Shown here in pieces: positions 1 to 64,000 of a stretch of 64,000 nt of DNA. Made by a program: the position numbers and the translations under genes. Within the stretch, counting starts at the first letter, position 1. Each line of letters starts with the position of its first letter. Below the pieces are notes generated by a model, which worked only from the letters and a program-made list of their open reading frames with translations, was not told where the DNA came from and ran no database searches. Source of the stretch: a virus (Duplodnaviria > Heunggongvirae > Uroviricota > Caudoviricetes). The stretch is from the IMG/VR virus record IMGVR_UViG_3300031873_001030; one strand, 5' to 3'.

Positions 1-73
1 GAAGAATTTGAAGACGGAGAATGGAGAGAATACTATAATGACGATAGTGAAGACATAATGGAGATGATAGATA

Positions 74-295
74 ATGGGAAATGAAGATGAATGGGATAAG
101 GTAAGGACAATATGTAAGGATTTGCTATACTTGGCTAAGATGAATGGATATGAGAAAGAATCCTTCTTTACATCTATGATTATACTGACAAACTTGAGGA
201 AGTCTTTGGATAGTGAAGATAATGTATGTATGCTTGAGGAAATGGAAAAGGAATTGAGGGAAGAGATACGTAGAAGGATAGGTGGATTTTCTTGA
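74..295 (+). CDS. hypothetical small acidic protein
   Basis: ORF track; co-oriented small-gene block; no recognisable motif. Confidence 0.4.
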   Translation: MGNEDEWDKVRTICKDLLYLAKMNGYEKESFFTSMIILTNLRKSLDSEDNVCMLEEMEKELREEIRRRIGGFS

Positions 296-371
296 GAGAG
301 GGATTTTGTAAAATAAAGAATGAGTATGCCTTCTGTTATTATTTTTCATTTGGACAGACTTATAATAGTCT

Positions 372-695
372 TTGTGGAAAGTTCAAGATAACTCCCACGA
401 AGAATGGATTTATAGTCAGAGAGAGGTGATACACGTATGTTTGAGGAAGAGGAAGAGATTGAAGAGAATGAGGAAGAAGAAGATGAAAAAGTGGAATGAC
501 AAGAAGTTAGTGAAAAATATAATGAAATACGAAGAAGGACTTATGGAAGACAAAGAAGTTGTGCTATTCTTTCAGTATCTTGTTGATATAGGAATGGCTT
601 GGACTTTACAAGGACACTATGGAAGGACTGCCCAATATCTTATTGACAGAGGATTTGTTGAAGACAAAAGAGGTAGGACGAATGTTGAACATTAA
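372..695 (+). CDS. small protein with C-terminal LVDIGMAWTLQGHYGRTAQYLIDRGF motif; start uncertain (in-frame ATGs at 468, 483, 522)
   Basis: ORF track. The C-terminal AW.LQG.YGR-type motif looks like a conserved phage/plasmid small-protein family (from memory, unverified). Basic low-complexity N-terminus. Confidence 0.5.
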   Translation: MWKVQDNSHEEWIYSQREVIHVCLRKRKRLKRMRKKKMKKWNDKKLVKNIMKYEEGLMEDKEVVLFFQYLVDIGMAWTLQGHYGRTAQYLIDRGFVEDKRGRTNVEH

Positions 696-697
696 AT

Positions 698-715
698 CAT
701 TAACATATGTTAATG
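698..715. repeat. 18-bp perfect palindrome CATTAACATATGTTAATG (core TTAACATATGTTAA at 700-713)
   Basis: Read directly; 5 nt after the stop of 372..695 and 25 nt before ATG 739. Confidence 0.95.
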
Positions 716-738
716 TAAAAAATATGGGATTGGTGTGA

Positions 739-975
739 ATGTTTGACGAGAAATGGATAGCTCATTTGGAGAAGGAACACAACGAGAGATGTTCTGATAG
801 GGATTTGAGAAAGAAGAATAAGATATATGAAGTTTCTAAAAAGTATGCTAAGGATTGTATCAAGTGTCAATATATCTGTGAGAGAAGCAATAATTTTCAA
901 TCCACGTTGAAAGAGTTGAAGAGAATGGGTTGGAAGATATATTTTCCTAAAGTGAGACAAACCAGAGGAGATTGA
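739..975 (+). CDS. hypothetical protein
   Basis: ORF track; bracketed by two copies of the TTAACATATGTTAA palindrome. Confidence 0.5.
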   Translation: MFDEKWIAHLEKEHNERCSDRDLRKKNKIYEVSKKYAKDCIKCQYICERSNNFQSTLKELKRMGWKIYFPKVRQTRGD

Positions 976-987
976 AATCTTATGTCA

Positions 988-1001
988 TTAACATATGTTA
1001 A
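988..1001. repeat. TTAACATATGTTAA palindrome
   Basis: Read directly; 13 nt after stop 975 and 38 nt before ATG 1040. Confidence 0.95.
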
Positions 1002-1039
1002 ACATTTTTTTTCTAGCGAACCAAACAGGAAGGTGTAGA

Positions 1040-1195
1040 ATGAAAAAGAAAAAAACATATTGGATAATTGATTGGTGTAATGTGGAAAATTGTAAAGTAG
1101 CATATACATTAACAGAAGCAAGAAAATTTGCGAAAGAATTATATGAAGATAGTTCTCGCGTAATCATATTTCAATATATAGAAGAAAAGAGTTAG
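1040..1195 (+). CDS. hypothetical small protein (track start 995 lies inside the palindrome; ATG 1040 preferred)
   Basis: AGGTG at 1031-1035 precedes ATG 1040; in frame with track ORF 995..1195. Confidence 0.45.
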   Translation: MKKKKTYWIIDWCNVENCKVAYTLTEARKFAKELYEDSSRVIIFQYIEEKS

Positions 1196-1206
1196 AGGTG
1201 TAGAAA

Positions 1207-1578
1207 ATGGGAATGTATAGTTCTACTGATTGGTGTGAATTGAAAGTGAAAAGGGGAAAGGAAATAGAATTTTTTGATTGGCTTAAGAGGAATGAAGATT
1301 GGAAAGAAGCGATAGAAGTATTGAATGGCGAAGTAGAGATACAAGTCAGTTGGAAGATTATAAGTTATTGGTATGACAGCTTCCTTGACGAACTTGAACA
1401 GCTTGCTGAATATATTACAGGAAAATGGATATTGCTTTATGAGACAGGAGAAAGCAAAGCCATAATAACATTTACAGAAGATGACGAAGTGAAGATAGAA
1501 GTTGGGGAAATGGATTATCACAAAATTGATATAGATGATTTGAGAAAGGAAAATATGAAAATGGAAAGGAGTGATTAA
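1207..1578 (+). CDS. hypothetical acidic protein
   Basis: ORF track; stop codon TAA lies inside palindrome 1575-1588. Confidence 0.55.
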   Translation: MGMYSSTDWCELKVKRGKEIEFFDWLKRNEDWKEAIEVLNGEVEIQVSWKIISYWYDSFLDELEQLAEYITGKWILLYETGESKAIITFTEDDEVKIEVGEMDYHKIDIDDLRKENMKMERSD

Positions 1579-1626
1579 CATATGTTAAGAGAGTCGGCGG
1601 ACCCTGAGTTGCTTAACATATGTTAA
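1575..1626. repeat. pair of TTAACATATGTTAA palindromes (1575-1588, 1613-1626) enclosing a 24-bp GC-rich insert
   Basis: Read directly; insert gagagtcggcggaccctgagttgc is 16/24 G+C. Confidence 0.95.
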
Positions 1627-1796
1627 GAAGCTTCATCCCGTTTCCATAGTAAATTTAAATACTATGGAAACTAATATTACATATGGTTAGATGGAAAAAA
1701 GATAGCCATATGATATTTGACAGCAACAATATCTATAATGATTTAGGTAATTGTTGGATTGACTTGAAAGCAAAGAAAAAAATGAGGTGATATGAA

Positions 1797-1886
1797 ATGC
1801 CTGTTGGAAGACCTAAAGGTTATAGTCCTAAGAGAGATAATCAGAAGTGGAACTATTGCCCAAATTGTGGGAAGAAAGTAAATTGA
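1797..1886 (+). CDS. 29-aa AT-hook (GRPKG) plus CxxC mini-protein
   Basis: GAGGTGA at 1784-1790 precedes ATG 1797; translation MPVGRPKGYSPKRDNQKWNYCPNCGKKVN; below the ORF-track size cutoff. Confidence 0.35.
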   Translation: MPVGRPKGYSPKRDNQKWNYCPNCGKKVN

Positions 1887-1905
1887 ACTAAAGAGGTAAT
1901 GAATT

Positions 1906-2094
1906 GTGAATTTGGAGAAGATTGTAAAGAAGATACAATTCCATAAAGAGATATTGATAAAGTTGAAGAATGATATGATTAAGAAGCATAGTCCTTTAGC
2001 TCCTGCGTATATAACTCATATACGTAGTTTGGAAGGTTTCTTGGCATATCTTGAAAAGGAGTTCAAAGCTATTGGAGAACAGAAAGAAGATTGA
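1906..2094 (+). CDS. hypothetical small protein
   Basis: ORF track; AGAGGT upstream. Confidence 0.45.
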   Translation: MNLEKIVKKIQFHKEILIKLKNDMIKKHSPLAPAYITHIRSLEGFLAYLEKEFKAIGEQKED

Positions 2095-2313
2095 TATGCT
2101 GAAAGGAAGTCTTTATAGATATTTCTTTTGTAAGGAAAAGAAAGAAAAAGAATATAGGTGTCCAAAATGCGATTGTATTTTGGAGATAGAGATAAAATGT
2201 GGACCCAAGTGATATTGATGAATAAATTACACGTAGATATATTTGGTATGGATATGGATTTTGTTAAATGTAATTCTATAAAAAATTCTCAGACAAGCGC
2301 TTCTGAAGACAAC

Positions 2314-2504
2314 TTAACATATGTTAAGAATTCAGCAGTACCTGCAGCAAGCAACTCATTAACATATGTTAAGTATCTCCATCGAATCATCCTTGGCAAA
2401 CGCCAGACCCAGGAACACAAGTCTTTAACATATGTTAATGTAATCATTGGCCGCATTGCCTCAAACAAGAAAGAAAATCCCAGTCGCCCATTAACATATG
2501 TTAA
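2314..2504. repeat. four-copy TTAACATATGTTAA array (2314, 2359, 2425, 2491) with unique 31-, 52- and 52-bp spacers
   Basis: Read directly. It produces mirror-image artefact ORFs 2158..2559(+) and 2289..2564(-) with repeated LTYV(N/K). Confidence 0.95.
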
Positions 2505-2641
2505 TAAGTTGGTGCCAGCAATTGCTTGGCAACCAACAGCATACAAAGTGATATTATGAATCATATTCCTTTCATATGAAGCAGATATGTGGAAAATATT
2601 TGATACAATAATAGAAGGGAGAAAAAATGAGTTAAAAAGAG

Positions 2642-2854
2642 ATGCGAATAATGAAAATATTTAATTACAACGTGAGCATAACAATAAAGAAAGATTATCC
2701 TAATTGTAAAGCTCCTATTCAAAAGAGATATAGAGAAAAAAAGAGGATGCGTGGTTTTTGTATAAATGGTGGATGTTGGAACAAAGTTGAAAATAACCGT
2801 TCCAAATGTCCAATCTGTATGGAAAAAGATAGGAAGAGATGGAAAGTGAGATAG
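2642..2854 (+). CDS. small Cys-rich (zinc-ribbon-like) basic protein
   Basis: ORF track; CKAP...CINGGC...CPIC cysteine pairs. Confidence 0.5.
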   Translation: MRIMKIFNYNVSITIKKDYPNCKAPIQKRYREKKRMRGFCINGGCWNKVENNRSKCPICMEKDRKRWKVR

Positions 2855-2867
2855 TTAGTGATTATTT

Positions 2868-3089
2868 GTGGACATAATAATTTCAACATTGATAGCATTT
2901 GGCTCTTTGGTATTGGCGATATTTTTCATACTTATTGCGAGGTGGGACGCAAACAAAGTGATAGATAAGTTGTATAGAGAGGAATATAAAGAGAGAAATA
3001 GGATTGATGCGAATGTTGTCAAATCACTTGTAGGGAACTTGAAACAGAAAAGAGATGATGAAATATCTAGTTCGGAATATACAAAATGA
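2868..3089 (+). CDS. small membrane-anchored protein
   Basis: ORF track; N-terminal hydrophobic helix IISTLIAFGSLVLAIFFILIA. Confidence 0.5.
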   Translation: MDIIISTLIAFGSLVLAIFFILIARWDANKVIDKLYREEYKERNRIDANVVKSLVGNLKQKRDDEISSSEYTK

Positions 3090-3209
3090 TTTTTAAGTAG
3101 CAACGTGTAATTATTAGATTAGTTAGATATAGAGGAGTGAAGGAAGTAACTAAAGAATCTCGTTTCTTTGGATATTTTCTTTAAGAATAAAGTATAATGG
3201 AGGTGGCAA

Positions 3210-3296
3210 ATGTCATTCTACGAAAGATTGGAGAGGAGAGCAAAAGCACTTAATGATATAATGTGGGGTTCAGACGATGAGACTGAAAGTGAATAA
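3210..3296 (+). CDS. 28-aa hypothetical peptide
   Basis: GGAGGTG at 3199-3205 precedes ATG 3210; weak. Confidence 0.3.
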   Translation: MSFYERLERRAKALNDIMWGSDDETESE

Positions 3297-3365
3297 CTCT
3301 ACTATTAATACTTTAGCAATTAATTATACTATAGGGACTTTAGGAGTTCCTATGGTATAAAAAAT

Positions 3366-3409
3366 CTAGGGGCTTTGTTCCTAGTTAGAAAGGGATATTC
3401 TTCCTTTCT
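3366..3409 (+). promoter_or_regulatory. two adjacent short hairpins (CTAGG..CCTAG; AGAAAGG..CCTTTCT) upstream of the 3441 operon
   Basis: Inverted repeats read directly. The second resembles hairpin 7673-7699 (GAAAGGG..CCCTTTC followed by ATAAAA). Confidence 0.5.
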
Positions 3410-3440: not shown

Positions 3441-4010
3441 ATGAAGACAATAGAAGTAGAAATAAAAGGTCCTATTTTGCTGATGCATAATCCGAAGTCT
3501 ATGCTAGACCCACAGACTACTGGAACGAAATCATCAACTGCGAAATATGACTATAATGTCGAAGCAGAGAAGTCTGCTTACAAGACGAAAAAAAATGAAT
3601 TATATATTCCTGCCCAAGCTATGTTCAGTTCCACATTGAATGGAGCTTCTTTCAAGAAAGTAGGAAAATATACTGCCAAGAGCATTATAGCTGGCAATAT
3701 GAGAATAGAGCCAGAAGAAATCCTGATTCTAGATAGCAAAGGGAAAGTCATGACAAAATATGAGATAGACTTGAGGACTGTGGTTATTGCTCAAGGTAAG
3801 AAAAGAAACCGAATAGTCAGGGCAAGAGCTATGGTAAAGGATTGGAGTGCTAGATTCAGAATAGTCTATAACGACCAATTCATAGGCGACCCTGCTATAA
3901 TAGAAGATTGCTTGAAGGATGCAGGTTCAAGGATAGGTCTGTTGGAATACAGACCACAGACAAGTGGAAGCTACGGAACATTTGAGATAGTGAAATTCAA
4001 GGTGATATAA
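3441..4010 (+). CDS. hypothetical protein, translationally coupled to the ParB-like gene
   Basis: ORF track; AAGGTGA upstream; stop abuts ATG 4011. Confidence 0.65.
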   Translation: MKTIEVEIKGPILLMHNPKSMLDPQTTGTKSSTAKYDYNVEAEKSAYKTKKNELYIPAQAMFSSTLNGASFKKVGKYTAKSIIAGNMRIEPEEILILDSKGKVMTKYEIDLRTVVIAQGKKRNRIVRARAMVKDWSARFRIVYNDQFIGDPAIIEDCLKDAGSRIGLLEYRPQTSGSYGTFEIVKFKVI

Positions 4011-4895
4011 ATGGCACTATGGGATAGGGAAGAAAGAAAGCATACGGAAAATAAAGTATTGCCACTCAAGGATATAGTATTTGATGAGAACATATATCCA
4101 AGACAAAGTTCATGGTGGCAAACTTCGTATAAATATGCCGAAGAGATGAAAGCAGGCGCAAGGTTTCCTCCAATCACAGTAGGTTTTGTGAATGGAAGAT
4201 ACGTGCTTGTGGATGGGAAGCATAGGAATGACGCACTTCTGATGAATAAGGAGACACATACATCAGTAGTAGTTCTCTATGGTTACACTTTGGATGAACT
4301 CTATATTGAAGCTGTAAAACTCAATAGGGCTCACGGTGTAGGACTTACTTCTTTCGACAAGGTCAAGATAATCAAGAGACTTGAAGATATGAAATATTCA
4401 TTGGGAGACATAGCCACGATAGTCCAGATTCCTTTGGGAAGCATAGAGAAATTTGTAGCACAGAGGATTACGTTAAATCCATTAGGACAAGTCACAGTAT
4501 TGAAATCTCCTCTCAAGTTTATGGCAGGAGGAACTATAACGATGACTGACGAAGAGCAAGATACTCTAAGTGTGAGGAGTGAGATAAGTCTGGTAAATCA
4601 GATGACACAGATATTCTCAAATCCGAAGATGCTAAGGGTTGATATAACATTCGTTGATGCTATCGAGAAGCTTTACCAACTGATTCAAGATTTCCTCAAA
4701 GAACAGAAAATTTTGAATGGAGCTGGAAATACAATAGAAGAAGTTCCAAAAGAGAAAATATACAAGAAAAGAGGAAGACCTAAGAAAATCAAGACTGAAA
4801 GTGAGACTTCAGAACCAAAGAAAAAGGGAAGACCTAAAGGTTCTAAGAACAAGCTTAAAGAACTTGATGTCAGTAACGTCAAAGAACAAGCATAA
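4011..4895 (+). CDS. ParB/Srx-fold (ParB-like nuclease domain) protein with two C-terminal AT-hooks
   Basis: N-terminal LPLKDIVFDENIYPR ... RFPPITV ... YVLVDGKHR matches the ParB N-domain pattern (DGxHR). C-terminal KKRGRPKK and KKKGRPKGSK are AT-hook cores. Confidence 0.7.
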   Translation: MALWDREERKHTENKVLPLKDIVFDENIYPRQSSWWQTSYKYAEEMKAGARFPPITVGFVNGRYVLVDGKHRNDALLMNKETHTSVVVLYGYTLDELYIEAVKLNRAHGVGLTSFDKVKIIKRLEDMKYSLGDIATIVQIPLGSIEKFVAQRITLNPLGQVTVLKSPLKFMAGGTITMTDEEQDTLSVRSEISLVNQMTQIFSNPKMLRVDITFVDAIEKLYQLIQDFLKEQKILNGAGNTIEEVPKEKIYKKRGRPKKIKTESETSEPKKKGRPKGSKNKLKELDVSNVKEQA

Positions 4896-4944
4896 ATAGT
4901 TAATCAGTTAGACTTTATTTGGAAAGAATGAAGCAGGGTTTAGT

Positions 4945-5015
4945 GACAACGAACCTCAGAGATAGAACTTACTGATTCTTAGAATCAGTTGGTTCTTACT
5001 GCGAGGTTCGTTGTC
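4945..5015 (+). repeat. 71-nt imperfect-hairpin element, copy 1 (candidate structured RNA or DNA cruciform site)
   Basis: Outer 13-bp stem GACAACGAACCTC/GAGGTTCGTTGTC, inner stems AGAAC/GTTCT and ACTGATTCT/AGAATCAGT; 50 nt after the ParB-like stop. Confidence 0.8.
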
Positions 5016-5431
5016 ATAGTTCCTTCCCTCTTCATACTTTCTTTAATATTAGGGAATTTATAAAAACTGTAGGTTTTTATTATGAGATAAGGTTCGGTTG
5101 GGTCAGTTGGGGTGGGTTCCGTTCCGATATGGTATGGTAAGATTATATTTATTGGACGTGGTAGGATAGGGTAGGATGCGATATGGTATTGTTACTTGTT
5201 CCGATATGGTTCGGTGATTTGGGGTTAGGTTAGGTCTGTTCCGATAGGGCAAGGTATGGTATTTTATTTATTCGATACGGTTCGGTTTGGTGGGTTTGGG
5301 TTAGGCAAGATAAGATAGGGTTAGACAAGGTATCTTACTTTTGTATCCGATTGGGTAAGGTCTGGTAGTATTCGGTCCGTTGTGGTTAGGCACGATATGG
5401 TGTGGTAAGGTTTGACATTTATAGTCAGTCA

Positions 5432-5491
5432 TTAACATATGATAAAGAGTTGGACCCAGTGCACGGGTGGCATTCCATTAACATATGTTAA
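5432..5491. repeat. palindrome pair (5432-5445 TTAACATATGATAA with 1 mismatch; 5478-5491 perfect) enclosing a 32-bp GC-rich insert
   Basis: Read directly; insert agagttggacccagtgcacgggtggcattcca is 19/32 G+C. Confidence 0.9.
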
Positions 5492-5525
5492 TGAGAAAAG
5501 ATAAGAAATAATGTAAAATGATAAT

Positions 5526-5798
5526 ATGAAGAAGATAAAGGAAGAATTTTGCTTTCGCAGGAATGATACTAGAACTTCATATGATATGCAGAAAGGCTAT
5601 CTGATATATGGCAAGATTGATGACATTTATAATATCATCACTTACAATCTATTTGAGATGTGGAATACTACAAAGTGTTTTAAAAGGTTTAGGAAATTGT
5701 TCGTCACTACTTCAAATCACGAATGGATACATTATCTTGTTCCAGATATAAAAGATGGAAGTCTGATGAAGAAGATTGAAAATTGGTTTAACTGGTAA
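5526..5798 (+). CDS. hypothetical protein embedded in the GGTNN tract
   Basis: ORF track; bracketed by a 42-bp perfect direct repeat that contains the palindrome. Confidence 0.45.
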   Translation: MKKIKEEFCFRRNDTRTSYDMQKGYLIYGKIDDIYNIITYNLFEMWNTTKCFKRFRKLFVTTSNHEWIHYLVPDIKDGSLMKKIENWFNW

Positions 5799-5822
5799 AA
5801 TGTATCGTTAACCAAAATTCCA

Positions 5823-5836
5823 TTAACATATGTTAA
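5823..5836. repeat. TTAACATATGTTAA palindrome (within the 42-bp direct repeat 5817-5858 = 5472-5513)
   Basis: Read directly. Confidence 0.95.
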
Positions 5837-5881
5837 TGAGAAAAGATAAGAAATAATGAAAATCAAAAAGAGGTAAAAAAA

Positions 5882-5989
5882 ATGAGATACTATTGCCGAG
5901 AACATAAGGAAAGTTTTGAGACTACTGTCTGCTTTCTTCAACATGTTCTTAAGGAACACCATAGCATATTTGACATCACAAGTGAATAG
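5882..5989 (+). CDS. 35-aa Cys/His-containing peptide
   Basis: ATG 5882 lies 45 nt after the palindrome; translation MRYYCREHKESFETTVCFLQHVLKEHHSIFDITSE; below the track cutoff. Confidence 0.3.
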   Translation: MRYYCREHKESFETTVCFLQHVLKEHHSIFDITSE

Positions 5990-6151
5990 ATATTTATGTG
6001 ATGAGGTGGGGTCAAGTCAGGTCGGTTCTGGTTGCGATACTGACCTTATCACACCAAACCTCACCTTACCAGGGTTCGATAAGTTGTGATTTGGTAGGAT
6101 AGGGTAAAGTTATTTATATTTGAAACACGTAATTATATGTCAAGGAAGTCT

Positions 6152-6223
6152 GACAACAAACCTCAGAGTTGGAACTTTCTGGTTCTAAAAAATCACTTAG
6201 TTCTTTCTGCGAGGTTTGTTGTC
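6152..6223 (+). repeat. imperfect-hairpin element, copy 2
   Basis: Outer stem GACAACAAACCTC/GAGGTTTGTTGTC. Confidence 0.8.
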
Positions 6224-6949
6224 TTTGTATCGACTTTATCATTCGGTCAGGTAAGGCGGGTTCAGGTGGGGTATAGTTTCGGTTCGGTATGGTAGTTTGA
6301 CATTTATACGATACGGTAAGGTGAGGTTTGGAAGATAGTCTTTATGATTCGGTAAGGTGGGGTCAGTTGCGATTGTGTGAGGTTTGATTTGGTTTGGTCT
6401 GATTTGGTAGTTTGAGGCAAGGTAAAGTTAATTCCTTTTATATGATAAGGTATGGTCTAATTCGGTCTGGTTTGGTTGGATGGGCTACGTTCCGATAAGG
6501 TTCGGTATGGTAATATGACACTTATACGATTAGGTTCGGTCAGGTAAGGTTGGGTCAAATGCGATTAGGTAAGATGAGGTTCGGTCAGATACGGCAAGAT
6601 ATGGTATAATATTTATTCGGTTAGGTGAGGTCAGTTTAGGTCTGGTCTGATGTAGTTTGGCATGGTAGTATAACACTTATCGGTTTGGTTCGGTATGATG
6701 CGATATGGTCAGATTCGGTTTGATATGGTAGTATGACACTTATTGGTCAGGTTTAGTAGAATATGGTAAGGTTCGGTTCGATACGGTGGGATATGGTCAG
6801 TTAGGATTTGGAAAAGGAGAGAATAGTTTCAAGAAAGAATCAGCCCTTGGGTGAGTCCCTTGAAATGAAAAATGCCGCACCAGAGATGGTGATATTAGGT
6901 AAACTAATATAAATCAAGGTTCGAACCGTCCGTTAGGCAACGGTTCTCT

Positions 6950-8632: not shown

Positions 8633-8635
8633 ATC

Positions 8636-58300: not shown

Positions 58301-60647
58301 TACGGTTGGAAATCCAGTTTCAATTGTTTGCGCATATGCGATAGATGCTGGAATCAATACATCATATCGTGTAAATATGCTGACATGTGAGAATGTGACT
58401 TCTATTGGCATAAGTCAGATTGGGAGCCATAACTTGACAGTAGCTGTTTGGGATACGTTCTTCACTACATATAATGAAAGCAGTGTCTTCTTTGACATAG
58501 ATTTTGTCAATCAGTGGATTGTGACTAATGGCGGTGGTGTTGTGCTGACTGATGGAAATGTATCATTTTCAAATGGAACGTATAGCTTTAACTTGTCTAC
58601 AACTAATGGAACGTTTTCGACAAATACATCTCTGCTTCCGAAAGGTAATGTGTCAGCTACATTCAAAGATTTTGTGACGTATGCAGATAAAACTGTATAC
58701 TACAATGTGACTAATGAGACTCAAATTTCTACAACTATTGTTCTTTCATTTTCTGGAGTCACTATAAGGGTATTTGGAGAAGATTCGCTTTCTCCGATAA
58801 ATTGGTATAAAGTGACGATGACAAATGGGACTGCAAGCACTGGAGCGTATACTACGCAATTGACAGTTGGAAAGGGAAATCCTGGGGGTTACTTGATAAA
58901 TTTCCTTGATGATGATATCAATACTTATGAGAGCAATCTGAATGCCTTGTTCACTTATGAATTTGGATTTACAAATGCGACATTTGCATTGACATATAAT
59001 ATATCTGATGCTGTTGGAAATAGCACCAATCTTACATTGAAGATTTATAACAATACAGTAGGTGCATGGGATACTGTCTTCAATCTGACAAATTCTGGAA
59101 ATAGTGGAGGAATCACGACAAGATATTTCACGATAGACAATAGTCCGTCGATATATGCAAATTATGGGGACATATTCACAAGCTGTCTTGGAACATATTG
59201 CCCATTGTTCATGATGAACATGACACCAGCTGGTTCTGCAGTGATAAAAGTTTATGAGATGAGATTGACAGAACCATATACTTATGATACAAACGGATTT
59301 GCACAGATTAATTTCACAAAGTTCCCGATTACTAGCGGAACTAGCAGATTCATGTTTCAATCTCCTGTATATGCTTCATCATTGAATAATTATGGACTGA
59401 GGACTTATTTCATAAATCCATCTGCGATGGCTACGATAAATTTGGATGCATATCTTAGTAACTTATGTTATATACAGCAGTTCCAAACTGTCCAATCTAG
59501 TTTGGCTACTACAAATCCTATTCCAGTTCCTGATGTGTTGCTTACATTGATGAAGGTATTTGGAACTGAATTGAAGATAGTCGACCAGCAGAAGAGCGAT
59601 TATTCTGGCATTGCAAGATTGTGTGTGGAAGCTGGTTATCCATATACTATGACTTTTGTGAAGAGTGGATATCAGACACAGACTGCTTATGATGAAGTGT
59701 TTTCAAACGCTGGTCCTTATTATGTCAACATGTTTACAGTGAACGCAAGCGATTACTTTTCAAACCCATATTCTACAAACATTTCGATAACTCCTGCAGA
59801 TAATTATATACACAATTCTACAACAATCTATACATGTGCTGTACTGGCTCCATATAATCCATGGGGACCTTCTGGAAATGTATTACTCTCATCTTTCCTT
59901 AGAATATATCATTCTTATGAGTTTGCTGCATATCCTCCAAACATATCTTCAGCGTTATATCCACCAAGTTCTGGATTCTGTAATGGTACTGCTCCATTTT
60001 GCACTAACTATTATACAAATACGACTTGTGCAGCAGTTGTAGGATGTAATTGGGTAAATTGGATTGTTACTGGTGCTTGTAATGGACCACCAACTTGCCT
60101 TAGTCATCTGAAAGAATCAACTTGTTTGAATGAGACTGGATGTGATTGGACACGTTTTGGACCATTTGGAATATCAACATTGCATAATTCGACATTGGTA
60201 TCTAATCAGACTTCAACAAATCCGCTTGGAGCTATATTCACTTATGGATTGAATGAGTCTGGAACTTACAACATAACTTGTGGAGGATATTTTCGTGTAG
60301 TGAATGATACTTCAATCTTCAATGCGACTGGGAGTATTATCGAAATTTCTAAGCAGAGGGTAATATGGGTAGAACCTACTGGAGGTGGAATAGCTGGTGC
60401 TGGAAAAGACTTGATAGGAAACATAAGCGAATCTGCGTTATATTTTGTAGTGCTGATATTGGATATGATTATAACAAGTTTCTTTGTCCGTCACTTTGGT
60501 ATGAAAAGTGCGTTTATATTCCTTGTAGTATGGGCTATGGCAATGGTGATATTAGGAGGTTGGGGTTTCAATGCACAGACTGGAGTATTCTCAGTTGGAT
60601 TTTTGTTATGGATAGCACTCATGTTCTATCCATATAGGAGGGAATAA
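49389..60647 (+). CDS. 3752-aa giant surface protein with DUF285/BspA-type repeats, duplicated modules, a Cys-rich region and C-terminal TM helices
   Basis: Uninterrupted ORF; N-terminal TM; ~15 x 25-aa MFxxAxxFNxNISxWNTxxVxxMxx repeats; very dense N-x-S/T sequons; DNRLRE-like segment (LLWNLSIIPTGATIVSANLSLYGY). Confidence 0.9.
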   Translation: MHWKHLLTHKSLFLEGIRISIRLSKATVKITSLIFALALIGTFGYLFISNVSNKVSGDSYNDINMSDIVNNTIVTASSYSNYEYEVTKNVYKTYFQDNINSGEAVRFEKDGYYFIYDLSGGKIQWAEQDGNPTKTKSIGAILSSPISLAGDKVYYNDAFAYTNVSYLILNDMLKENFILSSSLPIDDTYLYLEYTGEIKHSDSLMIYANDKNQTEKNFVTQGKIEFKDVNGTTIFFLPAPTVTDSNGKSEYGFYDIKISSGKIAFNLRVNSTFLKNAAYPVYIDPTIRTFNDTLSSKNLTFIWNQNQTLYISIPKNAIVTNAYLNLSGFPAQNNVNFFDPLDNGNYISSTNAIVSGGQITLNRQNNTGESFTSPPCSEIQYIGGTVPGTYATAQSFRASGVYLSYIKVKFFNQVTATLSIRSSLAGANLVSTSVASGDERYYEWYITNPPALTVGNTYYIVLTWSSDGSNYGGLRQACYNYLYPNGTYYAYLLSSWNTEPNGAYYDHAFETKYWEYDTSNYVNSVAIDTTSYYLNATLTKSDNIPAGTSITYYLSSNGGASWEQVTSGINHTFSNIGQDIRWRGVLTTNSDRSSTPTLYNMTVNASQGYWPMNPYLDISGDGDVEWNYTGTFNQSNNRTANLSSEINTYLSTCTPTSGNCTMPLVFHSDTAGIIQVSDINITYNVPFISVWNTSKAGTSNSTQIELPLYNGGTYAFTVDWGDGTTDYITSYLNDNHTYATAGVYVVNIAGTINGFRFNNGGDRLKIINITQWGDLNVGNSGNYFHGCANLNSNATDNLNLAGTTDLSNMFYSATSFNGSISGWDTSGVTSMYTMFYGASNFNSNISSWNTGNVINMEYMFYTASSFNQNISNWNTGKVTSMLSMFHGATSFNQNISNWDVSKVTTMSDMFHSATSFNGNISGWNVVNVTTMYDMFHSATSFNQSMSSWNTGNVATMFSMFYGATAFNGNISGWNTGNVNNMVAMFYNTPFNQNIGNWNVSSVTTTYQMFYSASIFNQNISSWNTSKVITMSEMFRGASAFNQNISNWDTSKVTTMTNMFYDATSFNGNVSGWNIGNVTTIDYMFRGATSFNQSMNNWNTSKVTTMYAMFYGASNFNGNISNWNTSNVIAMDYMFYNTAFNQNISSWNTGKVASMAGMFQSAASFNQNLSSWNVSSVTNAANMFLSVTLSTPNYDSLLVGWGSRVEKNATVFSGGNSKYSAAGLAGRNNLTGIYNNWTITDGGPVDIINPTYTNFGSDYTNNTAVNGGSILTYYAKWIDNIQLDKCVNSSKINTSGSWTNGTWASAGTGNWTNYTVKFPAEVGSNYTVKIYCNDTSGYMNVTGTLFWWAESFVITQNHTWQGTTLEDDNTFAYSPTLNVSFQMTALNFDNGTFEFDGANYTISTNPKVYNNTNGVYWINFTNKKPGNYNFKWYASTISGIWKNTSQVTLIVTKAYPAFSNSVTTPINYLTASDYASNGNNLGCDDCTYYTKRNGTQICVGACSDTTVLGASAYNYTIYTAGGENYTSGQSELDLTVNKIILSGTINSPDVTYPTGMSITGSESNTGDGDVAYQTCLDNVCTLGKGPNTFNYGANTYTCKFNTTGATFENYTASASIAIDSCTINKGTSLSLSINSNVTSPITYPIPSSINGSGCVFGAGYGTDIVCTLYRGNSTWSGTGNDTAILGAGIYAYNYSTPGGTNWTATSASNYTLIVNRGSLSLSINSNVTSPITYPTPSSVNGSGCAGSDVVCTLYRGNSSWSGTGNDSAVLSAGVYAYNYSTPGGTNYSAASAVNYTLVVLGNTPPTYSYFGATVPNNTVVVGGSVVTYYAKWSDDVQLDKCANSSRVNNSAWVNGTWVSPGTGNWTNYTVAFPSERGSNLTIRIYCNDSVGQMVETGTLFWIIDYYPYSNSTGQASNSIPSGTNNTLFSKLFAGGGGTTLSWAWLSTNETGAWKNYTITNYTYYSVILNESNSGNIGDTFEAGSSNPNINNGIYPSLEVYAFYGMRTFLLWNLSIIPTGATIVSANLSLYGYDIAHGGLGSRLYNAYNTSTYTLNDCGQQWIEGTRNQSANVTCNELVYNNQPSLNILQDSIWTGTTSNVWLSWNVTNATISTYSNTTNKNMSIVIKENTEVDNIYSLFFSKEYTGNIALRPQLNITYALPSPYIAGSLFNWVNFTWQNNSIIAGNIIGWKIYFNDSLGHENVTETYNFTIESSKPIISQNHTWQGTTLEDDNTFTYSPTLNVSFQITAWAYDLNILTATFEFNGVNYTNSTTTRVYNNTNNVFWINFTSMKAGNYNFRWYVNDTVGGWSNTSQVVLAIGKATLVGTISSPDVYFPADMSLTGLESNAGDVDVAYQTCLGDACKPGLGPNLFGSCCEYPADTYTCKFNTTGAVFENYTSNANIATDSCTINKGGLVGTITSPDVTYPADLFLTGSESNVGDTDVTYQTCVSNICKAGLGANSFDIGGGTYNCIFNTTGATFANWTASASMQTDSCTVNKGILTGSSSSPAVTYPAGLTATGTETNTVDTDVAYREYCELGTKGVLMGSALGGNPSGTVVLDVGTWTCKLNTTGGPFANWTASASIGTSVGIVSIGTLTGTISSPDVTYPTDMTITGIETNTGDSDVAYRTCLSGSGECKSGKGPNTFDYPPGTYSCVFNTTGAAFANWTSSSNIATDVCVINNGTLTIQLSTPTPITYEAVAGIEGWITNNAGDGGCTYILLRNGTQINTSIHVTDNTILGAGYYNYTYYTAGCANYTINRLADVPLTVNQKNAFVRVYPWTGPITYETSVFQYCTSLSTLVNCTMYRNGTTVTNGTNIVLGVGAYLFKANISDAANYTNYDDLNILTVDKKQLAANLWINGHLNQNTTVVQTFPYIPKYATSNATNINGLSGSLYRDDAPVAGDTDTIPPVQGTYKYKANATGNVNYTSDSVGQTFYASVISAHNITISSPVNGSSIGILPNTNKSVQINYTVGNPVSIVCAYAIDAGINTSYRVNMLTCENVTSIGISQIGSHNLTVAVWDTFFTTYNESSVFFDIDFVNQWIVTNGGGVVLTDGNVSFSNGTYSFNLSTTNGTFSTNTSLLPKGNVSATFKDFVTYADKTVYYNVTNETQISTTIVLSFSGVTIRVFGEDSLSPINWYKVTMTNGTASTGAYTTQLTVGKGNPGGYLINFLDDDINTYESNLNALFTYEFGFTNATFALTYNISDAVGNSTNLTLKIYNNTVGAWDTVFNLTNSGNSGGITTRYFTIDNSPSIYANYGDIFTSCLGTYCPLFMMNMTPAGSAVIKVYEMRLTEPYTYDTNGFAQINFTKFPITSGTSRFMFQSPVYASSLNNYGLRTYFINPSAMATINLDAYLSNLCYIQQFQTVQSSLATTNPIPVPDVLLTLMKVFGTELKIVDQQKSDYSGIARLCVEAGYPYTMTFVKSGYQTQTAYDEVFSNAGPYYVNMFTVNASDYFSNPYSTNISITPADNYIHNSTTIYTCAVLAPYNPWGPSGNVLLSSFLRIYHSYEFAAYPPNISSALYPPSSGFCNGTAPFCTNYYTNTTCAAVVGCNWVNWIVTGACNGPPTCLSHLKESTCLNETGCDWTRFGPFGISTLHNSTLVSNQTSTNPLGAIFTYGLNESGTYNITCGGYFRVVNDTSIFNATGSIIEISKQRVIWVEPTGGGIAGAGKDLIGNISESALYFVVLILDMIITSFFVRHFGMKSAFIFLVVWAMAMVILGGWGFNAQTGVFSVGFLLWIALMFYPYRRE
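51790..52945 (+). repeat. ~15 tandem 75-bp (25-aa) DUF285-type repeats inside the giant ORF
   Basis: Successive ATGTT(T/C) unit starts at 51813 and 51888 are 75 bp apart. Confidence 0.9.
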
Positions 60648-60649: not shown

Positions 60650-61099
60650 ATGAAAATGATATATAGGAAAGCAGCATCGTTGACTTTATTATTATCCATA
60701 TGGGCTGGAATAATAGGAGTTGGTGTATTGGCATATCCAAGCGGATATAAATCTACTTGGGACCAGATACAGACAGTATATTCAAATCCAGTTGGTGCAA
60801 TTCCAGTGATAATTAAGAATGCATTTTCAGCAGGGAATCTTGGTATGTTTGGAGGATTGTTAGTTGCTGGAGCAGTATCTGCAGTGATATTTACAACTTC
60901 TGTCTTGGGTGGTGGATTTTCCCAGCTGTTTGCAATTCCACTATTGATTATATTTGCAGTTGTCAATATGTTTGTCTTGCCAACGACTCAGATATTGTCA
61001 GAAAGTGGTGCGCCTTATGCAGTGCAGGTAATCTATACGCTTTTCATAGGGACACTTACTATTTTGACGGCATTGACATTCACTTCAGGTAGACCATAA
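60650..61099 (+). CDS. polytopic membrane protein
   Basis: ORF track; 3 nt after the giant ORF stop. Confidence 0.6.
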   Translation: MKMIYRKAASLTLLLSIWAGIIGVGVLAYPSGYKSTWDQIQTVYSNPVGAIPVIIKNAFSAGNLGMFGGLLVAGAVSAVIFTTSVLGGGFSQLFAIPLLIIFAVVNMFVLPTTQILSESGAPYAVQVIYTLFIGTLTILTALTFTSGRP

Positions 61100-61149
61100 G
61101 AGGCAAATGATATGAAAAAAGAAGATACAGAGAAGGAGGGAATGAGAAA

Positions 61150-61425
61150 ATGGTAGTATCTTTTCCATTCTTATGGGATGAATTGATTCAACAATTGTTA
61201 CTTAGTGTGACAGGTAGCCCATTACTTGTTGGTCTAATCGGAATATTTTTCATCGGAGTGTTAGGATTGGCAATGAGATTGACATTAGAGATACAGCTAA
61301 TTGCGATGTTCTTTTTTATAATGCTAATTGCTGTCGCATATATACCATGGATAAGTGGAGTTGTGCTAATTGTAGCTGGAATATTCGTTGGAATGTTTTT
61401 CTTTTACACGTTTTTCAGAGGATAA
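61150..61425 (+). CDS. small membrane protein (three TM helices)
   Basis: ORF track. Confidence 0.55.
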   Translation: MVVSFPFLWDELIQQLLLSVTGSPLLVGLIGIFFIGVLGLAMRLTLEIQLIAMFFFIMLIAVAYIPWISGVVLIVAGIFVGMFFFYTFFRG

Positions 61426-61426
61426 T

Positions 61427-61615
61427 ATGGAATTTGAAAAAGAATTGCAGTGCCCAAGATGCAGGACAAATTCACTGATAGATATAGGTGATTGGGATGA
61501 TGAGAATCTTTTCAAGTGCGTGTCTTGCAGATATTGGTTTCTGGAATCTTACATAAGAGGAAAAAATAATGATGCGTTGTGTCTGCATGAAGTGCCGATA
61601 GGAGATTTAAAATGA
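61427..61615 (+). CDS. zinc-ribbon protein (CPRC...CVSC)
   Basis: ATG 61427 lies 2 nt after the previous stop; in frame with track ORF 61388..61615. Confidence 0.5.
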   Translation: MEFEKELQCPRCRTNSLIDIGDWDDENLFKCVSCRYWFLESYIRGKNNDALCLHEVPIGDLK

Positions 61616-61830
61616 AATATCTGTACAACAAAGTTTCAGAAAAAATAGATGAGCTGATAAGGAAGAGCCCGAAGAGGGAGTTGGATATGGAATTATTGAA
61701 GAGGAGTCTTCCAAATAAGATAAGGCTTACAAGATTTGACGTATTGAGCATTGTGAGAGAAATGGAAAAAGATGGTTGTTTCGTTATCGATGGCAATAAA
61801 CTCAGAAAGGAGGTGAAAACCGATGGTTGA
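61612..61830 (+). CDS. small wHTH-like protein
   Basis: ORF track; ATGA overlap. Confidence 0.45.
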   Translation: MKYLYNKVSEKIDELIRKSPKRELDMELLKRSLPNKIRLTRFDVLSIVREMEKDGCFVIDGNKLRKEVKTDG

Positions 61831-61942
61831 ATACATTGTGAAAATATATAAAAGGAAAAGAGACGGAACTCTGACTGCTAATCTTGTGAGGCATTCTTAT
61901 AAGAAAGGAAAGGCTATAAAGATGGCTAAAGTCAATATTTGA
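61823..61942 (+). CDS. 39-aa basic peptide
   Basis: Overlaps the previous stop by 8 nt. Confidence 0.3.
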   Translation: MVEYIVKIYKRKRDGTLTANLVRHSYKKGKAIKMAKVNI

Positions 61943-61978
61943 TGAATTAAGATATAAAATAGTGGAGGTGAAAAAGAA

Positions 61979-62053
61979 ATGGCAAAAAAATGTTCAAATA
62001 AAGGAAAATTACTCAAAGTCAAGGGAAAAGTTCCCAAAGGTTGGAAAAAATGA
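61979..62053 (+). CDS. 24-aa basic peptide ending GKVPKGWKK
   Basis: GGAGGTG 8 nt upstream; 3' end lies in the 37-bp repeat 62024-62060. Confidence 0.35.
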   Translation: MAKKCSNKGKLLKVKGKVPKGWKK

Positions 62054-62092
62054 AAGAGTTGAAAAATATAAGATGATGGGGGTGAAAAAGAA

Positions 62093-62206
62093 ATGCAAAA
62101 ATGGAAAATTGAAAAAAGCAAAGTGAAAAAATTGAAAAAAATGAAAGGGAAATTTGATAAGATTGACATATATGAAGGAAAAGTTCCAAAAGGTTGGAAA
62201 AAATGA
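62093..62206 (+). CDS. 37-aa basic peptide ending GKVPKGWKK (paralog)
   Basis: GGGGGTG upstream; 3' end lies in the 37-bp repeat 62177-62213. Confidence 0.35.
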   Translation: MQKWKIEKSKVKKLKKMKGKFDKIDIYEGKVPKGWKK

Positions 62207-62349
62207 AAGAGTTAGGAACTGTGAAAAGAGGCAAGGTGAAGATATATTCAGAGAAACAGATGAAGTATCTTCATTTTAAGGAATTGCCTCACACTCACTA
62301 TAAGTATGTTGGAGGAAAGTTAATAAAAAAGAGGCATATATATACATGA
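62203..62349 (+). CDS. 48-aa basic peptide
   Basis: ATGA overlaps at both ends. Confidence 0.35.
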   Translation: MKELGTVKRGKVKIYSEKQMKYLHFKELPHTHYKYVGGKLIKKRHIYT

Positions 62350-64000
62350 CGCTTAAATTTGGAAAAATCAATAAGTTTAGTATGAGATGGCTTATCCTAT
62401 TAGCTATAGTGCCACTGATATTTTTCTCAGGATGTACTAGTCAACCAGGCATAATTTTATCTGCACCAAGCGGTAATCAGACTATATTTTTGACTCATGT
62501 TAATACGACTGTATTTGCATGGAATGGAACAGCTTTATCAGATTTGAATATGAGCATGTATTCGATAATAAATGCGACTTGGGTTAATACCACAAATATA
62601 AATGTCAGTCAGATTTGTTTCAATGGAACTTGTCTATTGTCATGGCCTATAAATTCATCTGCACAGATTATTGCTGTAATAAATAATTCTGGATATTACA
62701 ATATCACAGCTGCGATAGCTTCATACATAAATAATGCGACTGAGAGAAATCTGTTTACTGCGACATATAACATAACTTACAATACATGGGCATACAACCA
62801 GACATCTCCAGCAGTCAGCTATATAGATTGGTTGATACTTGTTTTTAATTCCACTTGGAATTCTACGTATAATGTTACGTATGATACTTGGGCTTATAAC
62901 CAGACAACACCTGCAGTAAATTATGTAGATTGGATTGTAGATACTTTCAATTCAACTTGGAACACCACTTATAACTCGACGTATGACACATGGGCATATA
63001 ACCAGACCACTCCAGCAGTCAGTTATACAAATTGGATTGTAGATATTTTCAACGCGACTTGGAACACAACTTATAATTCTACTTATGACCAATGGACTTA
63101 TAATCAAACACTTCCTGCTATCACATATGCGAACAGTCAATTCATAAATATGTCAAATGCAACTGTAAACCAATGGTTATACAATCAGACAACTCCTGCT
63201 ATAGACTGGGTTATAGCTCAAGGGTACATTAGCCAAGAATCAGAATATAATTCCAATCCACTTGGTTACATAAATGATACTTCGTGGAACATAACTGCAT
63301 GGAACGGTACTTTAGCTTTCAATAATACTTTATCAACTTATGACACATGGGCATATAACCAGACTACACCAGCTATAGATTGGGTCATAGCTCAAGGATA
63401 TACTGGAAATGCTTCATGGAACCAATCGTTAGCTGATACGTTATATTACAGTATCTTGAATCCGAATAATTTCATAAACAGTAGTTATAATGCAACTTAT
63501 GATACATGGTCATACAATCAGACTACTCCAGCTATTGACTGGGTCACAGCTCAAAATTATACTACTAGTAATTTTACATGGAACCAGTCATTAGCAGATA
63601 CACTTTACTACTGGATAACAAATCCAGATAATTTTGTGAATAATACTTATAATTCTACCTATGATACATGGGCTTATAATCAAACAACTCCAGCTATAGA
63701 TTACATACTGTCAAATCCTTATGGCTGGCTTAATACGAGTTATAACTCAACGTATAACACTTATGCTTATAACCAGACACAGCCAGCAATAGATTGGGTT
63801 ATAGCTCAAGGGTACATTAGTCAAGAGTCAGAGTATAACTCAAATCCACTTGGTTACATAAATGATACAAGTTGGAACATATCAGCTTGGAATGGTACTT
63901 TAGCTTTTAACGACACATTGGCTACATATGATACTTGGGCATATAACCAGACACTTCCAGCAATAGATTATGCAAATAGCCAATTCATAAACATGACTAA
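62347..64000 (+). CDS. lipoprotein-like surface protein with (S/N)TYDTWAYNQTTPAIDW repeats; 3' end beyond the window
   Basis: Hand translation shows the frame open from ATG 62347 to the window end. It is not in the ORF track because no stop is reached. N-terminal MRWLILLAIVPLIFFSGC is lipobox-like. At least 11 W/Y-AYNQT units. Confidence 0.8.

Follow-up and report, generated by a model that had tools for sequence, protein, structure and literature searches.

What kind of genetic element is represented by the 64,000-nt DNA stretch IMGVR_UViG_3300031873_001030, referred to here at its full length as the window? A first-pass annotation, made from the letters alone, had divided it into eight modules, running from an array of palindrome-bracketed mini-genes to an operon of giant surface proteins, and had seen in it a large extrachromosomal element of a DPANN-type archaeon. 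Open reading frames (ORFs), profile searches and repeat counts recovered the eight modules in the same order. With a probability of roughly 0.45, our analysis favors the reading that the window is part of a large non-tailed virus of a new lineage, which would be an extrachromosomal element of a DPANN archaeon. The window has a GC content of 35.9%, and its plus strand is strongly purine-rich and harbors nearly all long ORFs. The exception to this strand bias is a minus-strand block at 12988-17171, in which the GC skew changes sign.

The parent contig and its putative host

Exact protein look-ups placed the genes of the window, in reversed orientation, in the ENA contig k141_1406800 (ERZ27247974; 91,950 bp), and a 92,011-bp contig with the same genes was present in a second assembly. 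The window corresponds to the central part, about 70%, of this ~92-kb contig. Pieces were also found in the Logan runs SRR9651338, SRR35959834 and SRR35959919 and in JGI 3300052989, and the element was detected in at least five sequencing runs or assemblies. A 9.1-kb left flank is provided by a Logan contig of another sample (L007), which matches the window without a difference across a 2,049-bp overlap. This contig begins 48 bp outside the left end of the ENA contig, so that the left ends of two independent assemblies nearly coincide. The right flank read measures 7.1 kb and contains the rest of a 1736-aa surface protein, followed by a 1460-aa protein, P0004. It was taken from the ENA contig, which differs from the window at 5 positions in the 13.3 kb from 50650 to 64000, in contrast to the identity with the Logan contig on the left. 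Probably the window stems from a different assembly of this population, perhaps from the 92,011-bp contig. The sequence read, window and both flanks, thus amounts to 80 kb or 87% of the ~92-kb contig, the rightmost 11.7 kb (window-equivalent 71100-82824) lying outside it.

Considering that the ~92-kb size is common to the assemblies and that the left ends coincide, we conclude that the element is probably a separate extrachromosomal replicon, complete or nearly complete, and probably linear. The first-pass annotation had named core chromosomal genes in the flanking sequence as the finding that would speak for a hypervariable chromosomal island, and neither the 9.1-kb left flank nor the 7.1-kb right flank contains any. 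At the left terminus (L007 1-136; window-equivalent -9173 to -9038), the first 136 nt hold six of the 18 GGTTTGTAAA-like matches of the 11-kb locus. They form an array of 6-7 GGTT(T)GTAAA-like units spaced by 13-16 nt, which is followed by a single copy of a 14-nt palindrome. An inverted terminal repeat was sought with the left-terminal 26-mer in a JGI scan, which gave no match, and a JGI scan with a partial giant gene toward the right end returned a single irrelevant 1.7-kb match. Megablast of 24 kb of the window against GenBank phages detected no relative at the nucleotide level.

As far as sequence features can tell, the element is archaeal, because it combines a tRNA intron at position 37/38 with a bulge-helix-bulge motif, a Hef/XPF nuclease and a PCNA-type clamp. 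The intron interrupts a tRNA-Gln(UUG) gene (25333-25437, minus strand; 31-nt intron) that is absent from standard scans and was retrieved by ARAGORN with the option -i. The default placement of the intron by ARAGORN, at 36/37, reads as a suppressor tRNA. When we re-placed it at the canonical 37/38, the anticodon became UUG and a 3-4-3 bulge-helix-bulge appeared, in which a 4-bp helix flanked by two 3-nt bulges lies between the anticodon stem and the intron helix. Without the intron, the transcript folds as a cloverleaf. The bulge-helix-bulge conformer lies 8 kcal/mol above the predicted minimum-energy fold; the intron holds a copy of an anticodon-stem strand (CUUGG), which permits an alternative, more stable fold. 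The divergent PCNA-like sliding clamp is encoded at 30242..31066 (plus strand; NCBIfam archaeal clamp, 6.8e-11), and its ten best PDB matches are all archaeal PCNA.

The nuclease is a short protein of the XPF/Hef type with ERCC4 and HhH2 domains (25714..26358, minus strand; PF02732, 3e-26), which matches the C-terminal domain of the Hef nuclease with 3.6e-58. On its own it is not proof of archaeal origin, since bacterial megaplasmids carry ERCC4 proteins at 30-35% identity; evidence of such an origin comes from the intron and the PCNA-type clamp. Its relatives were retrieved in an exhaustive HMMER search (n = 4,347) and with a six-sequence alignment against 185,579 species genomes, which resulted in 77 loci. 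The best eight GTDB matches, with 46-51% identity over the full length, belong to Aenigmatarchaeota or to unnamed archaeal metagenome-assembled genomes. They are followed by Bathyarchaeia (40-42%) and by Woesearchaeota, Methanobacteriales and bacterial genomes (at most 37%). The closest XPF outside the sibling lineage described below (53%) is located on a 79.6-kb chromosomal contig (L095) with 36% GC. In the 20 kb of this contig that were read, genes for a Cys-tRNA synthetase, a topoisomerase, PCNA, a primase and a phosphoribosyl pyrophosphate synthetase stand beside XPF, and positions 1-2334 are part of a gene for a 13,820-aa protein. The window is unlike a host-type chromosome as seen in this contig. 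Tetranucleotide similarity to the candidate host loci was dominated by GC content and did not discriminate among them. These matches support, at the level of sequence, a DPANN archaeon as host, with the nearest signal in Aenigmatarchaeota. The earlier proposal of a DPANN-type host is supported by this XPF affinity and by a homologue of one of the giant proteins that is labelled Nanoarchaeota.

A sibling lineage was identified through an XPF homologue (P0073, 78% identity) on a 28.8-kb contig (L091) that is collinear with window positions 17850-33383. Most segments are 92-100% identical between the two. The XPF and methyltransferase segments are only ~77% identical, which argues for mosaic replacement. 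L091 has a LAGLIDADG gene in place of the arrangement in the window. Its tRNA region is larger, with at least 11 tRNAs that lack introns and further candidates that bear one, for instance tRNA-Trp. In the additional 1.6-kb block of tRNAs, two have introns that are built alike, with a hairpin and then an A-rich tail. In the gene for a P-loop ATPase, the differences between the window and L091 are distributed over the three codon positions as 7/1/34, corresponding to 36 synonymous and 5 non-synonymous codons. This bias toward third positions indicates that the ORFs are real genes under purifying selection.

Virus-like features and competing explanations

We scanned about 60 proteins against Pfam and about 77 against PHROGs, at the sensitivity of profile hidden Markov models. 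Within 80 of the 92 kb, no integrase, transposase, capsid, portal, terminase, ribosomal, RNA polymerase, synthetase or metabolic gene was detected. The earlier statement that integrase, capsid and packaging genes are missing therefore stands for the window and for 87% of the contig, at that sensitivity. An integrase of the SSV type and a DnaA-like AAA+ ATPase were likewise absent from the 80 kb and were found only in the small elements described below. In a tblastn search of 19 concatenated proteins against GenBank phages and plasmids, only XPF, the ligase and the phrog_4652 protein matched.

Several features nevertheless lean toward a virus. The element carries six tRNAs (at least 11 in the sibling), it and its sibling bring together HNH, GIY-YIG and LAGLIDADG endonucleases, and segments have been replaced in a mosaic fashion. 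The tRNA array (24527..25538, minus strand; ARAGORN, Rfam) comprises Tyr, Pro, His, Asn, the intron-bearing Gln(UUG) and a weak Ala-like gene; five tRNAs pass the Rfam/ARAGORN thresholds, and the sixth bears the intron. The weak gene (25468-25538, minus strand; TGC anticodon) scores 37.5 bits with Rfam, is not called by ARAGORN and has a poor acceptor stem. Since a good tRNA-Ala occupies the homologous place in the sibling, the gene is better read as tRNA-Ala, and its copy in the window may be decaying. The HNH endonuclease (24736..25212, minus strand) shows the motif CxxC...HH...N...CxxCH and matches HNH PHROGs down to 3.9e-22 in a pooled scan, and the GIY-YIG endonuclease (26515..26859, plus strand) matches PF01541 with 5.9e-14. 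Matches to phage families were obtained for phrog_4652, the HNH protein and the DUF285 giants. The left flank encodes a MoxR-type ATPase (L007 3267-4700; bpMoxR, 7e-14, and AAA_5) and its VWA partner (L007 4987-6609; VWA_2, 1e-5), along with a small LigD-like ATP-dependent ligase and orphan proteins. The MoxR+VWA pair is known from two-tailed archaeal viruses (ATV) and is not specific to viruses.

Kinship through P0004 points in the same direction. The P0004 family, defined by a conserved N-domain plus DUF2341, occurs otherwise in 13-38-kb elements made up of ORFan genes (L011, L012, L013, L094). These have a fixed layout, in which a large protein is followed by small proteins, a giant and two hydrophobic proteins, the first of ~140 aa and the second of ~95 aa. 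Among these elements, one encodes both an integrase and a PriCT primase domain, and a 'DnaA-like' ATPase of the fusellovirus type (phrog_5484, 1.9e-14) is present in one or two. Several encode paralogous pairs of ~80-aa proteins with two transmembrane (TM) segments and a sequon in the loop, a predicted architecture that is that of spindle-virus capsid proteins. A scan with the N-domain alignment found the family neither in the 185,579 GTDB genomes nor in IMG/VR, which fits mobile elements that escape both virus classifiers and binning. The first-pass annotation had not considered the element a standard provirus and had taken a non-viral replicon as the default; the extrachromosomal part of that view stands, and the tRNA array with its homing endonucleases and the P0004 kinship point at least as much to a virus.

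The right part of the element resembles the layout of the small relatives. A 76-aa protein with two hydrophobic helices (49090..49320, plus strand; hydropathy) precedes a 3752-aa surface protein (49389..60647, plus strand) which is anchored at its N-terminus, contains DUF285 repeats and has a C-terminal region with several TM segments. The giant is followed by two very hydrophobic proteins of 149 and 91 aa (60650..61425, plus strand), without significant similarity to the proteins of the P0004-family elements. The architecture of the 76-aa protein makes it a candidate for a small membrane capsid protein. The 3752-aa protein matches PHROGs 17273 (1e-110) and 22899 (1e-77) and has 185 N-glycosylation sequons, as compared to 91 expected. 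A 1736-aa lipobox-bearing surface protein (62346..64000, continuing to window-equivalent 67556; plus strand), behind which P0004 is encoded, has 168 sequons versus 60 expected, and one of its homologues is labelled Nanoarchaeota. N-X-S/T sequons exceed the expectation from composition 2-2.8-fold in the secreted giants only, not in cytoplasmic proteins. Such an enrichment fits archaeal N-glycosylation and the glycan genes of the element itself.

A number of observations weigh against a DPANN virus. Pfam and PHROGs revealed no capsid, portal, terminase, packaging ATPase or known archaeal-virus structural protein in the 80 of 92 kb, and among GenBank archaeal viruses there was no similarity beyond XPF at ~30%. 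IMG/VR scans with ATPase, TROVE, P0004 N-domain and XPF alignments returned no relatives, nor the element itself. Neither the two-TM proteins of the related elements nor PHROGs are significantly similar to the 76-aa two-TM protein. A ParB-like gene combined with the lack of an integrase suits a plasmid equally well. The DPANN assignment is drawn mainly from one horizontally transferable gene, XPF, and linearity and completeness solely from the left end and the contig size.

A plasmid-like extrachromosomal element, comparable to a small Borg-style accessory replicon that forms no virions, is the strongest competitor and a tenable second choice. It would be kept by an initiator and a ParB/GGTNN system, and would provide its DPANN host with giant glycosylated adhesins and with tRNAs for attachment to partners. 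The ParB-like gene adjoins the repeat arrays, in line with this proposal. Its 294-aa product (4011..4895, plus strand) retains its label through PHROGs only (phrog_1033, 'ParB-like partition protein', E = 6.4e-6, residues 17-140), with no match in Pfam or NCBIfam. A plasmid would also account for the lack of any structural or packaging gene in 87% of the contig, for the absence of the element from the IMG/VR scans and for its near-unidirectional genes and low GC, as in Borgs; furthermore, giant surface proteins are chromosomal as well in the putative host lineage, where 13,820 aa are encoded beside the closest cellular-type XPF. However, neither ParA, conjugation or toxin-antitoxin genes nor a second P-loop protein were seen in the 80 kb, and large lytic viruses are the more typical carriers of tRNA arrays accompanied by homing endonucleases of three kinds. 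The relatives of P0004 belong to small elements in which an integrase and an ATPase of the fusellovirus type occur, no GTDB genome contains the family, and the PLSDB plasmids gave no match except for the XPF gene.

Much less probable is an archaeal virus of the head-tail type (Caudoviricetes), in which capsid and terminase either escape detection through divergence or are encoded in the remaining 11.7 kb; the giants would be its tail fibers and a 1340-aa protein (44139..48161, plus strand) its tape measure. The size, tRNAs, PCNA, ligase and homing endonucleases of the element recall large haloarchaeal tailed viruses, the DUF285 giant matches large phage proteins, and tailed viruses of Methanobacteriales carry a short ERCC4 nuclease too. 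Yet a head-tail module normally takes up 15-20 kb and is usually detectable with PHROGs; none was found in 80 kb, and ~10.9 kb are left beyond P0004. A terminase-type ATPase motif was not found either, and the giants have membrane anchors and a lipobox, which would be unusual for tail fibers.

We consider it improbable, too, that the window is a hypervariable island of a DPANN chromosome and not a separate replicon. Giant surface proteins and an XPF with 53% identity do occur on DPANN chromosomes, and the GC content is alike (36.4% vs. 35.9%). On the other hand, the 80 kb contain no core gene, compared to several per 20 kb in the chromosomal fragment, and ~92-kb contigs from different assemblies have their left end in common. 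The element also has an initiator-like ATPase of its own, with only two database homologues, and was not found in GTDB genomes. Least probable by far is a bacterial element, such as a phage or plasmid of Patescibacteria (candidate phyla radiation): ERCC4+HhH proteins at 30-35% identity are present on Pseudomonas and other bacterial megaplasmids, the ligase is LigD-like, DUF285, ARPP-1 and MoxR-VWA are common in bacteria, and Shine-Dalgarno-like motifs precede many genes, but removal of the 31-nt tRNA intron at 37/38 requires a splicing endonuclease of archaeal or eukaryotic type, archaeal Hef is the best match of the nuclease, the clamp is of the PCNA type, the closest XPF genes are archaeal (46-53%, vs. 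at most 37% for bacterial genomes), and intrinsic terminators are not enriched.

Repeats, replication genes and remaining modules

The left end of the window (1..3400, plus strand) is an array of short ORFs punctuated by the perfect 14-nt palindrome TTAACATATGTTAA; it includes a DUF7417 protein (468-695, plus strand; E = 2.8e-18). The window contains 14 exact copies of the palindrome, as compared to 0.03 expected. They cluster at 700-5836, with eight within 700-2504, and further pairs occur at 12361/12398 and 24416/24466; the copy near the left terminus is at L007 148-161. Most copies are paired at a distance of 40-70 nt and located immediately 5' of genes, in the manner of operators. The array is probably an early or regulatory gene block under a single operator-binding regulator. 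Bacterial-type intrinsic terminators were not enriched near the mini-genes (13 vs. 8.4, standard deviation 3.2). The array is followed by the gene for the 189-aa phrog_4652 protein (3441..4010, plus strand; E = 2.3e-17), which is translationally coupled to the ParB-like gene and whose homologue in Pseudomonas phage LESphi2 is in the early region.

Downstream of the ParB-like gene extends a mostly non-coding landscape of GGTNN pentamers (4927..7950, plus strand), recognized by GGT density and spacing. It contains 174 GGT in 2.9 kb, with up to 28 per 300 bp against a mean of 3.8. Successive GGT are mainly 5 nt (70 times) or 10 nt (31 times) apart, followed by 15 and 20 nt. The arrays hold a strict 5-nt phase for up to ~50 nt and consist of 23-58-nt blocks between AT-rich spacers. 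Their G-rich strand always matches the local gene orientation, and short GGTNN patches are also found 5' of the genes at 35503 and 41764. Embedded in the landscape are three ~90% identical copies of a 72-77-nt hairpin with a 28-bp stem (4944-5015, 6149-6225 and 6947-7022), whose folding has a z score of -4.9 and which shows one compensatory pair. The region is a candidate centromere or iteron region. The palindrome, the GGTNN arrays and a 216-nt hairpin described below all exceed chance by far. The repeat-based maintenance system that had been proposed did not fare as well, coming down to the juxtaposition of the GGTNN arrays and a ParB-like gene that is itself weakly supported.

A 396-aa P-loop ATPase with a C-terminal winged helix (17743..18933, plus strand) has its Walker A motif at residue 59, the sole canonical one found. 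Its earlier label as MCM-like is weakly supported: the match to the MCM P-loop family PF00493 (E = 0.003) covers residues 42-92 only and lies under the gathering score. The hallmarks of the MCM family, i.e., helix-2 insert, pre-sensor-1 hairpin and N-terminal OB/zinc domain, were not found beyond this Walker A stretch of ~50 residues. The C-terminal winged helix-turn-helix (wHTH) domain has MarR/TrmB matches at ~1e-4, and there was no PDB match. AlphaFold2 gave a predicted local distance difference test score (pLDDT) of 30 with a three-sequence alignment, and a search of 5.8e9 protein clusters revealed only two homologues. The architecture, AAA+ followed by wHTH in ~400 aa, appears to fit Orc1/Cdc6-like proteins at least as well as MCM, and we regard the protein as a candidate replication initiator or helicase loader.

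Close to this gene lies an AT-rich tract followed by a 216-nt imperfect palindrome (19190..19460, plus strand), identified by folding and arm complementarity. The arms measure 92 nt (19237-19328 and 19361-19452) and are 76% complementary. Folding yields -108.7 kcal/mol (z = -13.9) on the plus strand versus -85.3 on the minus strand. The hairpin (19237-19452) has a (GA)n loop, and the advantage of 23 kcal/mol of its plus-strand fold implies many G-U pairs. This suggests that the hairpin is read at the level of RNA or single strands and is not a plain DNA palindrome, so the region 19190-19460 is a candidate replication origin or structured RNA. It is followed by genes for an S-adenosylmethionine (SAM) methyltransferase, an ARPP-1+wHTH protein, a 105-aa ORF and a DUF6745 protein (20503..24054, plus strand), in the same order as in the sibling.

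Between the repeat landscape and the ATPase, two membrane proteins are encoded at 7964..9276 (plus strand), one of 222 aa with one TM segment and one of 160 aa with several, as judged by a hydropathy scan; neither has a family match in Pfam. They are followed on the plus strand by a PD-(D/E)XK nuclease (10650..11186; PF12705, E = 5.8e-7), a GT2 glycosyltransferase (11167-12039; PF00535, 1e-21), a C2H2 zinc-finger protein (within 11167..12995; zf-C2H2_6, 2.5e-5) and a SAM methyltransferase (12405-12995; Methyltransf_23, 5.5e-20). The inverted block, identified from ORFs and the GC-skew inversion (12988..17171, minus strand), has about nine small genes, among them one with a SLOG/YAcAr domain (14475-14822, minus strand; YAcAr, 1.3e-7), and contains a reverse GGTNN array, detected by its ACC density (16330-16830, minus strand).

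To the right of the GIY-YIG gene, a TROVE/Ro60-like protein (26864..28279, plus strand) matches the PDB TROVE proteins 9l5y and 9kop (E = 3.1e-6, residues 15-398). The distance between its gene and the tRNA array is 1.3 kb. In bacteria, a tRNA-like Y RNA is usually encoded close to Ro60; when positions 24000-29500 were scanned for a Y RNA with Rfam E-values, tRNAs only were returned. Downstream of the clamp gene, an SPFH/HflK-like membrane protein (31557..32483, plus strand) matches PF01145 with 5.6e-37. Profile, motif or PDB matches thus bear out the labels HNH, XPF, GIY-YIG, Ro60-like, PCNA-like, SPFH, GT2, methyltransferase and nuclease. The PrimPol-like label obtained no statistical support. 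It had been given to a 247-aa protein (33879..34622, plus strand) with putative primase-polymerase-like motifs, FADFD and GKNRYH, which are DxD and GxxxH motifs read by eye; Pfam, PHROGs, NCBIfam and PDB provided no match, and AlphaFold2 gave a pLDDT of 36 from the single sequence.

The glycan cluster (36768..42583, plus strand) consists of a GT1 glycosyltransferase, a sugar C-methyltransferase, a GT-C/PMT_2-like protein predicted to span the membrane about nine times and two SAM methyltransferases. Beside it, a membrane-anchored protein (42573..43328, minus strand) contains 48-bp tandem repeats (TRF, 3.1 copies, 97%) and has 22 N-glycosylation sequons versus 8.3 expected. The 48-bp unit encodes repeated NITNISVFNTTNLTVL units, that is, stacked N-X-T sequons. 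As an iteron candidate, the tandem repeat (42939-43088) was rejected, since it lies inside this minus-strand gene and encodes N-I-T sequon repeats. The 1340-aa protein is free of cysteine and rich in G, V, A, T and P, and has no Pfam or PHROG match. Its gene, counted from 44163 to 48161 for a 1333-aa product, has 42% GC versus 36% elsewhere, and its C-terminus is a poly-Gly tract with a basic tail. Very basic mini-ORFs (43724-44031) stand ahead of it and a 207-aa protein rich in E, R and K behind it.

Proposed working and comparison with known systems

Taken together, the modules allow a working scheme. Gene content, repeats, contig size, the archaeal and DPANN affinity, the sibling lineage and purifying selection are shown by the data, and linearity, the origin, the segregation role and virion formation are inferred. 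One palindrome-binding regulator would control the small early genes of the left third, a region of regulation and maintenance, and the ParB-like protein would load onto the GGTNN arrays for segregation or maintenance of the ends. The ATPase-wHTH initiator may open the adjacent AT-rich/hairpin origin. A host polymerase would then be recruited to the PCNA-like clamp of the element, as no polymerase gene is present in the 80 kb read, and the ligase and the XPF/Hef-like and PD-(D/E)XK nucleases of the element may process forks and flaps; the primase is possibly its own. The variable tRNA array with its archaeal introns may support translation and offset differences in codon usage, and the homing endonucleases could shuffle the tRNA region between lineages. 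The right third would produce a coat of particles or of the cell surface from the giant, heavily N-glycosylated proteins and the small hydrophobic ones; the GT1, GT2, GT-C and methyltransferase enzymes of the element would glycosylate the giants, which might mediate attachment to cells.

In its most specific form, which we find unlikely as a whole, the proposal of a non-tailed virus reads as follows. The element would be the first genome of a new family of large (~92 kb, linear) DPANN viruses. Their DNA would be packaged, with none of the known folds for capsids or packaging, in a particle built on lipid or glycoprotein and covered by self-glycosylated proteins of 1.3-3.8 thousand amino acids, and be maintained by telomere- or centromere-like GGTNN arrays bound by the ParB-like protein. 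The family would form the giant end of a spindle- or pleomorphic-type group of 13-38 kb that shares its adhesin and is missed by hallmark-based catalogues.

DPANN archaea are abundant, dependent on other cells and almost uncultured, and their mobile elements are known mainly through hallmark-gene pipelines; replicons of ~90 kb escape both virus catalogues and genome bins. With giant glycosylated adhesins, its own glycosylation enzymes and variable tRNAs, such an element may change the partner to which a DPANN cell attaches, or may be a virus using the same trick. The GGTNN arrays beside the ParB-like gene are a candidate for a new archaeal segregation or telomere system.

The comparison with known systems starts with the metagenomic DPANN viruses from acid-mine-drainage and groundwater viromes, which share the host superphylum and, like the element, are known from metagenomes only. 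Hallmark-gene classifiers such as VirSorter2 underlie the DPANN virus catalogues (PMC12647753), whereas no hallmark gene is detectable in the element, and the IMG/VR scans did not return it. Large tailed viruses of haloarchaea and methanogens (HGTV-1, HVTV-1 and Methanobacterium virus PhiF1) are alike in size, tRNAs, PCNA, ligase, nucleases and homing endonucleases, and PhiF1 and Drs3 encode a short ERCC4 nuclease with 29-31% identity. Unlike in these viruses, no capsid, portal, terminase or tail gene was detected in the element, and no other protein is in common.

The Borgs and mini-Borgs of Methanoperedens are also extrachromosomal and defy classification as virus or plasmid. They further resemble the element in low GC, near-unidirectional genes, giant glycosylated surface proteins, glycosylation genes of their own and possible linearity (see also PMC12660748). 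In contrast to Borgs, the element is ten-fold smaller and has few perfect tandem repeats and no metabolic genes, and its XPF is closest to Aenigmatarchaeota (46-51%), with Methanosarcinales matches at 30-41%.

Bicaudaviridae (ATV, STSV1/2) and Fuselloviridae have no sequence similarity to the element. Their hosts are Sulfolobales and their genomes circular, whereas the contig is seemingly linear and without an integrase in 80 kb, and the tRNA array, PCNA, XPF, TROVE and proteins of 1.3-3.8 thousand amino acids are not known from these viruses. In organization, however, both families are alike to it in consisting of tens of kb of mostly orphan genes without HK97 or double-jelly-roll capsid genes, and in having glycosyltransferases, C2H2 zinc-finger proteins and small hydrophobic proteins beside large fiber-like glycoproteins. 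The MoxR-type ATPase and VWA pair is shared with Bicaudaviridae, and the link to Fuselloviridae is provided by the small P0004 relatives, which carry an integrase and a fusellovirus-type DnaA-like ATPase.

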